From the IMG/VR virus record IMGVR_UViG_2698536339_000020: 4,046 nucleotides of DNA; one strand, written 5' to 3'. The stretch comes from a virus. Its lineage: Duplodnaviria; Heunggongvirae; Uroviricota; Caudoviricetes. A program made the position numbers and the translations under genes. The notes beneath the pieces are model-generated. The model did no database searches. It worked only from the letters and a program-made list of their open reading frames with translations, and was not told where the DNA came from. Below are positions 1,327 to 3,209 of the stretch, one piece after another (within the stretch, counting starts at the first letter, position 1; each line of letters starts with the position of its first letter).

Positions 1327-1899
1327 TCATAATTCTGTGCTGGTGGCAGGAATTAATTTCTGCCAGATAGCGGAAACATATTTTGCCTGATGACGGGCAT
1401 CAGCCAGGGCGTTGTGCCGTTCGCCATCGAAAGGCATGTCCATTTTGGGGTCGAATCCGATGGAACACCCAAGCGTAACGATCGTGCGTACATCGTGGTC
1501 ATTCCAGTATGCCCACGGGCAGATTTGTCCTGCTCGCTCATAAGCTCCACGTAAAATTACGTTGTCGAAGGTGGCTCCGTTACCCCAGACTTTTAAATAT
1601 TTCGTATTGTCTGCGTGCCGGTTAATGAAATGATTTAGTTCTGAGAGAGCATCGCTGATCGACAAAGTATCATCAATACAGATTGCAGCTCGTGCTTCAG
1701 GGCTTTGTTTCAACCACCACAGGATGGTATCGCCGTCAGGTGTAGCTCCTTGCCCCATAGCACTTTCCAGGCTAACAACCGTATAGAATTCTTGTCCGAT
1801 GTCTCCGGTTTCTGGAGTGAAGAACACCGCGCCAATGGAAACGATCGGTGCATCCTTATTTTTCCCCATCGTCTCAAGGTCGATCATTAAGTTATTCAT
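1327..1899 (-). CDS. DEDDh-family (DnaQ-like) 3'-5' exonuclease, phage-type
   Basis: 190-aa ORF with an N-terminal Exo I-like motif MIDLETMG...APIVSIGAVFF and a C-terminal Exo III-like motif HNALADARH (H-x4-D), typical of DEDDh exonucleases. Strong SD GAGGTG is 5 nt upstream of ATG 1899-1897. The start overlaps the upstream gene's stop (TAATG). Confidence 0.85.
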   Translation of the reverse strand: MNNLMIDLETMGKNKDAPIVSIGAVFFTPETGDIGQEFYTVVSLESAMGQGATPDGDTILWWLKQSPEARAAICIDDTLSISDALSELNHFINRHADNTKYLKVWGNGATFDNVILRGAYERAGQICPWAYWNDHDVRTIVTLGCSIGFDPKMDMPFDGERHNALADARHQAKYVSAIWQKLIPATSTEL

Positions 1900-2210
1900 T
1901 ACTTCACCTCCTGCGTTTCTTTGCTGCTGTGAATTCGCCAGTTACCGACGCCTTCCCATTCAAACTGGCGGTTACTAATTCGCGTCCAGCCCCTGCCGAA
2001 AAGCAAATCCAGATACCAGTATTTTAAAGTTCTGATAATTGCTCTTACAGTTGGTTTGCATCCAGAAGTCTTTGATGCGCAAATAAAGCACCGAGTTATG
2101 CTCATGGCCTCTACAAAAGGCCAGATAAACCAAACCCAGATGCAAAGAGCCACGAACAACATGAGCGCGATGTTAGCCACTAAGCCAGACCAGTACAGAT
2201 AATTACTCAC
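1899..2210 (-). CDS. Small hypothetical membrane protein (single N-terminal hydrophobic helix, Cys-containing C-terminal part)
   Basis: 103-aa ORF. The first possible start after the in-frame stop is GTG at 2210-2208, preceded by SD GAGG with a 6-nt spacer (AAAGAGGCAACCAGTG). Hydrophobic segment LVANIALMLFVALCIWVWFIWPFV, then CFICASKTSGC. Stop TAA overlaps the exonuclease ATG. No homolog recognised; the coding call rests on the RBS, the coupling and the operon context. Confidence 0.5.
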   Translation of the reverse strand: MSNYLYWSGLVANIALMLFVALCIWVWFIWPFVEAMSITRCFICASKTSGCKPTVRAIIRTLKYWYLDLLFGRGWTRISNRQFEWEGVGNWRIHSSKETQEVK

Positions 2211-2691
2211 TGGTTGCCTCTTTCATAAAAATAATCCAGTGGGTTTTATCGTTTTTTCCTGTTCGTTGACCGATAACAGGTTTTCTGTCTGTCAGTGCCA
2301 AAATCTGGCTTACCGGTATTTGCGTTTCATTCCATTTAAAAACCAGAACACCGTTTGGCCACAACACACGAAAGGCTTCTTTAAATCCCTGCCGCAAATC
2401 ATCACGCCAGGTATCTTTATTCAGCCGTCCATATTTCTTTCCCATCCAGGCGTTATCACCAACACGCTCAAGATGCGGAGGGTCGAATACAACAACCGGA
2501 AACGATGCGTCTGCAAATGGTAATGCACGAAAATCTGCTATCAGGTCAGGGCTAATTATCAGGCGTCGTCCATCACATAATGTGTGCTCTTCCTTTCTGA
2601 TGTCGCTAAATATCGCCCGGTCGTCATTCTTATCGAACCAGAACATGCGACTGCCACAGCACATGTCGAGGATTGCTGCATGTCCAGTCAC
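2203..2691 (-). CDS. Small SAM-dependent methyltransferase with (D/N)PP(Y/F/H) amino-methyltransferase motif; probable phage orphan DNA methyltransferase
   Basis: Motif I-like AAILDMCCGS near the N-terminus and motif IV-like VVVFDPPH about 55 residues later. The likely start is GTG at 2691-2689, preceded by a textbook SD AGGAGG (2703-2698) with a 6-nt spacer and overlapping the upstream stop (GTGA). The longest ORF runs to ATG at 2724, 37 nt inside the upstream gene, with a weaker RBS. Stop TAA at 2205-2203. Confidence 0.8.
   Translation of the reverse strand: MTGHAAILDMCCGSRMFWFDKNDDRAIFSDIRKEEHTLCDGRRLIISPDLIADFRALPFADASFPVVVFDPPHLERVGDNAWMGKKYGRLNKDTWRDDLRQGFKEAFRVLWPNGVLVFKWNETQIPVSQILALTDRKPVIGQRTGKNDKTHWIIFMKEATSE
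2207..2220 (-). promoter_or_regulatory. Second copy of the same 14-nt junction motif (GAGGCAACCAGTGA) serving as RBS + GTG start of the small membrane-protein gene
   Basis: Minus strand reads GAGGCAACCAGTGAGTAA: identical 14-mer to 2688-2701, with the GTG start at 2210-2208 and the methyltransferase stop TAA at 2205-2203. Confidence 0.5.
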
Positions 2692-2703
2692 TGGTTGCCT
2701 CCT
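2688..2703 (-). promoter_or_regulatory. Ribosome-binding site / translational-coupling junction (AGGAGG-N6-GTG overlapping upstream TGA)
   Basis: Minus strand reads AGGAGGCAACCAGTGA: SD, 6-nt spacer, GTG start of the methyltransferase, and the stop TGA of the upstream gene overlapping as GTGA. Confidence 0.55.
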
Positions 2704-3209
2704 TTGCGAATCTGCTCCGCCCATTCTTCAAGGGATTTCTCCGCATATTCACCGGACAGGCCATCAATCGGATGCGGTTCATTAGCTAACTCTTCTTTCG
2801 CTGACAGAATCATGCGCGTAACGTCGAAAACTTCACGTAAAGACTTATTGATAAATCCGTGGTTGAAAGCTGCAGCAAGACGACTTGCGGTATAGTTAAT
2901 TCCCTCGTTGCGAGCCTCCGCACGAATTTCAGCCAGAAAAGCATCGGTGGCTGGAATTTGCGGCATACCTCCGCCTGCTGCGCAGATATACGCATCAGAT
3001 ATTTCATCCTGCTCGCCATTAAACACATAGCAACTCTGTACGATAAATTTATTCAGCCGCGCATTCTCCGCCGCCAGCGTCTCGCATTTAGCTTCAAGCG
3101 CGTCGAACTTACGTACTAGGTACTCAGCATTTGTTTCGTTCACTTTCAGATCTCGCGGTACACATTTCCCGCGAAGAAACCCTTCCATTTCGAAAACATT
3201 CATGCGCAT
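2688..3209 (-). CDS. Hypothetical phage protein with a predicted N-terminal coiled-coil region; possibly Ead/Ea22-like (weak)
   Basis: 173-aa ORF. ATG at 3209-3207 has SD GGAG 8 nt upstream. Coiled-coil-like segment EYLVRKFDALEAKCETLAAENARLNKF, Gly-rich CAAGGGMPQIP, acidic C-terminus. The start overlaps the stop of the upstream HD gene, and the stop overlaps the methyltransferase GTG start. Family assignment is not secure. Confidence 0.7.
   Translation of the reverse strand: MRMNVFEMEGFLRGKCVPRDLKVNETNAEYLVRKFDALEAKCETLAAENARLNKFIVQSCYVFNGEQDEISDAYICAAGGGMPQIPATDAFLAEIRAEARNEGINYTASRLAAAFNHGFINKSLREVFDVTRMILSAKEELANEPHPIDGLSGEYAEKSLEEWAEQIRKGGNQ

Follow-up and report, generated by a model that had tools for sequence, protein, structure and literature searches.

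A probable stand-alone DNA amino-methyltransferase, small and without a recognition domain, in the early operon of a lambdoid prophage of Escherichia coli

The DNA amino-methyltransferases of the beta class (PF01555), among them YhdJ and M.EcoGI/M.EcoGII, are proteins of 294–352 residues in which motifs IV–VIII come first, followed by a target-recognition domain and then by motifs X-I-II-III. By the usual rule, an Asp in motif IV favours methylation of adenine at N6. One of these enzymes, M.EcoGII, is prophage-borne and silent in lysogens (PMC5778455). The DNA analysed here, called the window throughout, is a stretch of 4,046 nucleotides from a virus of the Caudoviricetes (IMG/VR record IMGVR_UViG_2698536339_000020), and its minus strand carries at 2203–2691 an open reading frame (ORF) for a small methyltransferase, which like M.EcoGII lies on a prophage. 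The protein resembles the beta-class enzymes from the strand before motif IV through motifs IV–VIII (hhalign scores of 92–97%) and shares their D-P-P-aromatic catalytic motif. It is probably a stand-alone phage DNA methyltransferase of the N6-adenine or N4-cytosine type, with short or relaxed specificity, that is used against restriction. From the sequence we infer DNA as the substrate, as well as the base methylated, the low specificity and the anti-restriction benefit.

In several respects the window protein departs from the beta class. It has 162 residues, its motif I (residues 7–14) precedes the DPPH motif (residues 70–73), a His replaces the Tyr or Phe of motif IV, there is no recognition domain, the sequence falls below the Pfam threshold, and the predicted fold lacks helices A–C. 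The gamma class (M.TaqI, HsdM) has the same motif order as the window protein, which nevertheless has no recognition domain, is not recovered by HsdM (DNA adenine; 0.1% in hhalign) and does not belong to that class. To RsmD, Trm11/UPF0020, TrmN6 and PrmC there was no significant profile similarity, and the window protein differs from them in having no RNA- or substrate-binding extension and an exclusively phage context. M.NgoMXV, the N4-cytosine enzyme of Neisseria gonorrhoeae, was reportedly described by Radlinska, Bujnicki and Piekarowicz (1999, 2001) as an atypical N4-methylcytosine (m4C) enzyme whose motif IV contains Asp, whose specificity is relaxed and which lacks a discrete recognition domain. 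Such a description would suit the family of the window protein, one member of which (P0302, see below) bears the name of that enzyme. Gonococcal PacBio methylomes contain, in more than 14 of 25 strains, an unassigned partial m4C motif, AAANCGGTTNNC, that is methylated to about 20% (PMC6789123).

Profile comparisons were all carried out with hhalign, by one procedure, against a profile of 94 family members. The highest scores were obtained with beta-class DNA enzymes: a joint profile of seven of them (N6-adenine/N4-cytosine) scored 96.5% (E 8.2e-10), E. coli YhdJ (DNA adenine) 92.3% (E 5.5e-7, 102 columns, residues 41–153) and an M.EcoGII-like DNA adenine enzyme of phage 1720a-02 91.6% (E 8.1e-7). 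Similarity to the beta-class N-terminus begins just upstream of P48, at residue 41 for YhdJ and 46 for the M.EcoGII-like enzyme, and marks out a catalytic half (residues 41–153, motifs III/IV–VIII; 2233–2571, minus strand) homologous to the beta-class N-terminal catalytic region. A C-terminal sub-profile scored 96.9% (E 1.4e-10). A family member and the M.EcoGII-like enzyme align in BLASTP at E 8e-7, and 15 of the 94 members had sub-threshold matches to Pfam N6_N4_Mtase (PF01555; best E 1.3e-4). The window protein itself had no PF01555 match at E ≤ 0.1, and thus lies outside the beta class as Pfam delimits it; no match to Pfam N6_Mtase or Eco57I was found for it either. Dam, a DNA adenine enzyme of the alpha class, scored 0.4%. 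Because of the beta-class hhalign scores and the PF01555 matches, the catalytic half is specifically related to beta-class DNA amino-methyltransferases. The protein as a whole cannot be filed as a member of that class, since its motifs run in the opposite order and it has no recognition domain. Circular permutation was considered and rejected: the N-terminal half aligns positionally with the C-terminal SAM motif (for S-adenosylmethionine, SAM) of the beta class, but not significantly (E 0.16).

Conservation was assessed in an alignment of 94 diverse homologues with identities down to about 41%. Motif I, ILDMCCGS (residues 7–14; 2650–2673, minus strand), forms the SAM-binding glycine loop after strand 1, and its residues L8, D9, C12 and G13 are at least 90% conserved. 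D30 (motif II; 2602–2604, minus strand), acidic and invariant, stands at the end of strand 2, a position that in class I methyltransferases generally provides a ligand of the SAM ribose. The motif III region, P48-D49...D53-F54 (2530–2550, minus strand), was placed by this alignment together with the profile alignments. Motif IV, D70-P71-P72-H73 (2473–2484, minus strand), is invariant and would form the catalytic pocket for the exocyclic amino group; in full, the residues invariant across the homologues are D30, P48, D70, P71, P72, H73 and R108.

The AlphaFold2 model of the protein is confident (predicted local distance difference test score, pLDDT, 95.1; predicted template modelling score, pTM, 0.90) and consists of a single compact Rossmann-type domain that ends directly after strand 7. 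Its seven-stranded sheet with antiparallel strand 7, motif I after strand 1 and acidic strand-2 end are those of a class I methyltransferase, and D70-P-P-H73 directly follows strand 64–69, as in exocyclic-amino methyltransferases. Since the model stops after strand 7, a target-recognition domain would be impossible, which agrees with the claim of an earlier sequence-only reading that the protein has no room for one; the motif I and DPPH motif named in that reading are likewise present, at residues 7–14 and 70–73. Residues 10–63 of the model lack the canonical helices A, B and C and instead form a beta-hairpin (34–46) and loops, with no helices between strands 1 and 4. No solved methyltransferase with the same loss of helices A–C was found, nor any solved structure of a family member.

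That the ORF is a genuine gene is well attested. It comprises 162 codons plus TAA and encodes a product of 18.8 kDa, in keeping with the small methyltransferase of about 160 amino acids that had been proposed at 2203–2691. On the minus strand, its GTG start lies at 2691–2689 and its TAA stop at 2205–2203; a Shine-Dalgarno sequence, AGGAGG (2698–2703, minus strand), can be read directly from the sequence 6 nt 5' of the GTG. This start codon shares bases with the TGA that ends the upstream Ea22-like gene (GTGA), an overlap of start and stop that is translational coupling; the 3' end of the methyltransferase ORF is in turn overlapped by the GTG (2210) with which the next gene starts. A 100% identical E. 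coli chromosome carries the identical coding sequence, annotated there by the Prokaryotic Genome Annotation Pipeline (PGAP) as 'class I SAM-dependent methyltransferase' (WP_021563902.1). Hidden Markov model (HMM) searches gave full-length matches to phrog_954 ('DNA methyltransferase'; E 1.7e-88, residues 3–161) and to the PADLOC models PDLC03288 (MTase_II, 'Type II methyltransferase'; E 5.4e-74) and PDLC03730 (oMTase, 'orphan methyltransferase'; E 5.3e-49). These three are the family to which the window gene belongs; they are bioinformatic families whose labels, which agree with a DNA methyltransferase, are annotations. The gene is evidently, from these matches, a new member of a known, annotated phage methyltransferase family. 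No Pfam family covers it, with sub-threshold Methyltransf_11/25 matches alone, and scans of the window with Rfam and for tRNAs and promoters returned no feature overlapping it. The phrog_954 match (E 1.7e-88), 5,868 homologues and a low ratio of nonsynonymous to synonymous substitution (dN/dS) argue that it is no chance ORF.

Members of the family are numerous. A single-sequence query of a collection clustered at 90% identity returned the 5,868 homologues at E ≤ 1e-3, a profile query of it returned at least 8,000, and at 50% identity the family has 2,039 representatives. Typical lengths are 150–175 residues. Among deposited phage genomes, 256 encode a member; their hosts include Streptococcus, Listeria (A118 ORF50), Enterococcus, Lactobacillus, Staphylococcus, Vibrio, Acinetobacter, Porphyromonas, Gordonia and Corynebacterium. 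One haloarchaeal virus encodes a member as well, and most bacterial phyla are represented. Identity is 57–68% in genomes of Proteobacteria, Actinobacteria, Bacillota, Verrucomicrobia and Spirochaetes and in one bacterium of the candidate phyla radiation, and 945 of 5,426 complete E. coli genomes contain a match. Some labels given to members agree with a DNA substrate but stand against the adenine that the Asp of motif IV would favour: the annotation of A118 ORF50 reads 'methylates cytosine residues in DNA', 'cytosine' recurs in several older annotations, and P0302, a 160-residue Klebsiella variicola protein from a 90%-identity cluster in the family, bears the source name 'DNA N-4 cytosine methyltransferase M.NgoMXV'.

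Within E. coli, dN/dS is about 0.2, which indicates purifying selection; across genera of Enterobacterales dN is 0.12–0.22 with synonymous sites saturated. Decay is seen in many E. coli copies. At the same dusA prophage site, the methyltransferase of an O157-type strain is interrupted by an internal stop (L091, 3015–3488), and at a second defective-prophage locus, flanked by ydfW/ydfA, a truncated 118-residue ORF remains (L092/L093, 3133–3489). Such pseudogenes, together with a prophage that itself looks defective (no integrase by the dusA junction, several frameshifted genes), are what would be expected if the window gene were an inactive, decaying remnant of a larger methyltransferase. That explanation is nevertheless close to negligible: the window copy is intact and keeps every invariant residue, about 155–165 residues is the normal length in thousands of homologues, active phages included, dN/dS is well below 1, and the fold model is complete and confident. 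The enzyme is probably active and no remnant, because DPPH, D30 and R108 are invariant and purifying selection is strong.

A number of results weigh against DNA methylation as the function. The SAM-binding half of the family profile carries no DNA-methyltransferase signal (E 0.16), so that the similarity is confined to the catalytic half. RlmKL, an rRNA enzyme, scored 61% in hhalign. Fold searches were led by PH0226, phosphatidylethanolamine N-methyltransferase, Trm11, TrmN, RsmC and Bud23, with M.TaqI only at Foldseek rank 26 (template modelling score, TM, 0.50). In the PDB, sequence and profile searches gave only insignificant matches, at the motif IV region, and in the profile search Trm11 (E 0.1) stood ahead of a beta-class DNA methyltransferase (E 1.5). 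PGAP gives some copies the name 'TRM11 family'. The protein has no recognisable DNA-binding domain and its core is only mildly basic, with an isoelectric point (pI) of 8.5. Two further DNA methyltransferase genes lie in the same prophage, one for a Dam-like 'phage N-6-adenine-methyltransferase' and one that is frameshifted. Finally, no experiment on any family member was found in the open-access literature, and E. coli RM13514 carries a 99.8% identical copy, yet its methylome has no extra methylation motif. The single-molecule real-time (SMRT) methylome of that strain contains the motifs GATC and CTGCAG only (PMC3893438). If the prophage gene is repressed, the absence of a further motif is what would be expected, and the strain therefore gives no positive support. 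Methylome papers on carrier strains (O145 RM13514, ST131, O111, group A streptococci) attribute no motif to the gene, the prophage genes being silent, and nothing was found in the literature on the DPPH motif, on phrog_954 or on orphan or recognition-domain-less phage methyltransferases. The alternatives weighed here and below keep their share of probability because of the RM13514 methylome, the RNA-like structural neighbours and names, the mild basicity and the lack of an experiment in the literature.

Much of this would suit an enzyme that methylates RNA, of the RsmD, Trm11 or TrmN6 kind, forming N2-methylguanosine (m2G) or N6-methyladenosine (m6A) in rRNA or tRNA and thereby altering host translation or shielding RNA from a host nuclease. 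The size of the protein, the position of motif I before motif IV and the (D/N)PP(aromatic) motif are as in RsmD- and Trm11-type enzymes; Trm14 joins Trm11, TrmN, RsmC and Bud23 among the top structural matches, and Trm11 is the best PDB sequence match that contains motif IV (E ~0.1). Identities of 57–68% across phyla would fit a universal target, and a few members are fused to or adjoin ASCH domains, which are predicted RNA binders. An RNA substrate is unlikely all the same. RsmD (rRNA m2G), TrmN6 (tRNA m6A) and PrmC (protein glutamine) scored 1.6%, 0.9% and 0.6%, which is noise next to the 92–97% of the beta-class DNA enzymes; the match to RlmKL covers its C-terminal 7-methylguanosine (m7G) domain and misses the Trm11-like UPF0020 domain; neither a THUMP nor any other RNA-binding domain is present; and the gene occurs nowhere but in early or replication modules of phages, where other DNA methyltransferases are often its neighbours. 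The sequence-only reading had left the choice between DNA and RNA or protein enzymes to HMM and structure searches. Of these, the profiles favoured DNA and the beta class, whereas DNA, RNA and small-molecule enzymes could not be told apart by fold. Its proposal of a small orphan DNA methyltransferase gains support from homology (YhdJ 92.3%, beta-class profile 96.5%, PrmC, RsmD and TrmN6 at most 1.6%) and from context.

An N-methyltransferase of the Methyltransf_11 type with a protein, small-molecule or nucleotide target is a further candidate, and a very improbable one. Among protein enzymes, PrmC is at 0.6% and PrmA at 16.5%, the latter through motif I only. An invariant DPPH after strand 4 is a signature of exocyclic-amine or glutamine N-methylation and not of Methyltransf_11, and the specific homology to DNA methyltransferases stands. 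Linkage to YfdR and to the exonuclease encoded nearby is not conserved, each being near the gene in 3 of 58 related loci.

Those loci come from a survey in which genes were called in 80 related loci and their neighbours clustered; the methyltransferase ORF was recovered in 58, from many phyla. No conserved neighbour family was present in the 58 and no restriction enzyme was seen. The commonest neighbour was an integrase (11 loci), others being repressors, DnaB/DnaC/O-like replication proteins, a C5-cytosine methyltransferase, ASCH-like proteins, YfdR and the exonuclease. In Listeria phage A118 the family gene adjoins genes for a recombinase and a single-stranded DNA-binding protein (SSB), and in a metagenomic phage it adjoins an N6_N4_Mtase gene. 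Without exception, the family gene lies in the early or replication module of a phage. In the absence of a conserved neighbour family, the enzyme appears to work alone.

This survey bears on whether the protein might be only a catalytic subunit that requires a separately encoded specificity or DNA-binding partner from phage or host. The missing target-recognition domain, the translational coupling to both neighbours and a C-terminal extension of about 85 residues, present in many relatives and common to another phage methyltransferase family, would all suit such an arrangement. With no conserved neighbour in 58 loci from many phyla (the integrase, at 11 loci, being the commonest), flanking genes that vary among E. 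coli phages, and a downstream 103-residue protein from a PHROG without known function, with a hydrophobic stretch that by eye resembles a membrane span, the need for a partner seems very improbable.

The extension in question is found in 248-residue variants (P0013 and about 30 others), and phrog_111, a family of Dam-like phage methyltransferases, has the same module of about 85 residues at the end of its long members. Being common to both, it suggests a further tie to DNA methylation. N-terminal extensions of relatives are heterogeneous, with one ASCH domain and one apparent gene-call fusion to a membrane protein. The extensions were rejected as recognition domains, the N-terminal ones being heterogeneous and the C-terminal one common to phrog_111. 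ASCH-like domains are either fused at the N-terminus (P0219, P0148) or encoded next door, in 5 of 58 loci. One protein of 294 residues (P0330; 453 bits) may be a tandem duplication.

Several previously described proteins were compared and set aside. M.EcoGI, M.EcoGII and M.EcoGIX are not family members, being 349-residue beta-class or plasmid single-strand-specific enzymes, and the 'N6-adenine methylase with no detectable activity' of pneumococcal phage SpSL1 is a beta-class protein outside the family. YfdM of E. coli K-12 (CPS-53) is a prophage methyltransferase-like gene whose prophage shares yfdP-yfdQ-yfdR with the window prophage. It has no visible similarity to the window protein, reads by eye as a Dam-like N-terminal fragment and was rejected as a relative. 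A phenotype in self-recognition of phage SW1 has been published for YfdM (bioRxiv 10.1101/413146); as the two do not look homologous, it does not apply here.

A lambdoid prophage inserted at dusA in E. coli strain elppa4 contains a stretch that matches the window with 100% identity. Along the minus strand the gene order is YfdQ, YfdR (an HD 5'-deoxynucleotidase), Ea22-like, methyltransferase, a 103-residue protein, an Rv2179c-type 3'-5' exonuclease and a PrtN/excisionase-like gene, and the methyltransferase block lies leftward of the repressor/cro pair. No promoter-like site was found upstream of the methyltransferase on the minus strand of the window, and a strong bidirectional hairpin resembling an intrinsic terminator (AACCCGCCGAAGCGGGTT plus a T run, 990–1007) separates the leftward early operon from a convergent YafO gene. 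The position left of repressor/cro, the missing minus-strand promoter and the terminator at the end together suggest a delayed-early leftward operon. The gene thus sits in a phage early operon, as had been supposed, between the Ea22-like and exonuclease genes. The orphan status claimed for it also holds, since the annotation of the identical E. coli chromosome shows no restriction endonuclease in the 12 kb to the left or to the right of it, just as none was seen in the 58 loci; a PADLOC search of the neighbouring proteins gave no relevant match. The methyltransferase is an ordinary accessory gene of a lambdoid prophage. With the Dam-like and frameshifted enzymes counted, this element would once have encoded three methyltransferases. 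In the identical chromosome (L001), the dusA junction without adjacent integrase and the Dam-like and frameshifted methyltransferase genes are at 9492–9596, 19058–19711 and 23591–24489.

Other genes of the window were also noted. The 103-residue ORF (1899–2210, minus strand) is coupled to the methyltransferase and matches phrog_2531, of unknown function, at E 4e-27; its product has a hydrophobic segment that, judged by eye, probably spans the membrane. The RefSeq annotation of the identical chromosome omits it and leaves the space from the exonuclease gene to the methyltransferase gene empty. The Ea22/ead-like ORF of 173 residues (2688–3209, minus strand) is intact, with a full-length match to phrog_614, and the corresponding region of that chromosome has just a short partial pseudogene call (L001, 12873–13007). 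On the plus strand, the gene for the YafO-family toxin is preceded by that for a 179-residue protein (region 1–540 and 557–991), with no recognisable YafN-type antitoxin. The 179-residue protein has a signal-peptide-like N-terminus, belongs to phrog_8416, of unknown function, and is called 'YafM antitoxin' in one phage record.

Both gene junctions flanking the methyltransferase carry a 17-nt direct repeat, TCACTGGTTGCCTC[T/C]TT. The downstream copy (TCACTGGTTGCCTCTTT, 2207–2223) lies at the boundary with the next gene and the upstream copy (TCACTGGTTGCCTCCTT, 2688–2704; 16 of 17 positions identical) at the boundary with the Ea22-like gene. Read on the coding strand, the repeat is (A/G)GAGGCAACCAGTGA, that is, a ribosome-binding site and a GTG start that overlaps the stop before it. 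Alignments with other phages found by BLAST end at 2203 and 2688, and because they break at the repeats, the arrangement looks like a conserved junction for cassette swapping. In phage PhiR40_1, Ea22 and EaE occupy the place of the methyltransferase block, and the genes flanking the methyltransferase vary among E. coli phages. By these comparisons, the methyltransferase evidently occupies a variable slot of the early-left operon.

Taken as a stand-alone DNA methyltransferase, the protein would work as a single Rossmann-type domain of about 155 residues that transfers the methyl group of SAM to an exocyclic amino group, adenine N6 or cytosine N4, without a partner subunit. Motifs I–III for SAM binding would come first, then DPPH (IV), then V–VIII; the catalytic half would share ancestry with the beta-class amino-methyltransferases while having its SAM motifs upstream and not downstream. 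Motif I, D30 and D53 would hold SAM, and a flipped base would enter the D70-P-P-H73 pocket, where the methyl group would pass to the exocyclic nitrogen. DNA would be read by loops alone, namely the hairpin 34–46 and a conserved loop at 74–94 with KKYGxL. As contacts would be made by loops and not by a recognition domain, specificity is expected to be short, degenerate, relaxed or absent. The gene would be expressed with the delayed-early leftward operon after induction or infection, and replicating or progeny phage DNA, once methylated, would escape restriction in the current or the next host.

A bolder proposal, doubtful at present, is that the family represents the smallest free-standing DNA methyltransferase, with a core of about 155 residues and an architectural class of its own: a beta-class catalytic half placed after the SAM motifs, without a recognition domain and with a Rossmann fold in which helices A–C are predicted to be absent. 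Such an enzyme might methylate adenine or cytosine with little or no sequence specificity, would possibly act on replication intermediates, and could provide temperate phages of many phyla with a broad shield against restriction, as M.EcoGII would. The interest that remains lies in the small architecture without a recognition domain and in the specificity of the family. If the protein is active on DNA, it shows how little protein suffices to flip and methylate a base, and a 19-kDa enzyme of relaxed specificity would be a possible tool for footprinting or labelling, as M.EcoGII became. Fixing the substrate of the family would correct or confirm thousands of annotations.

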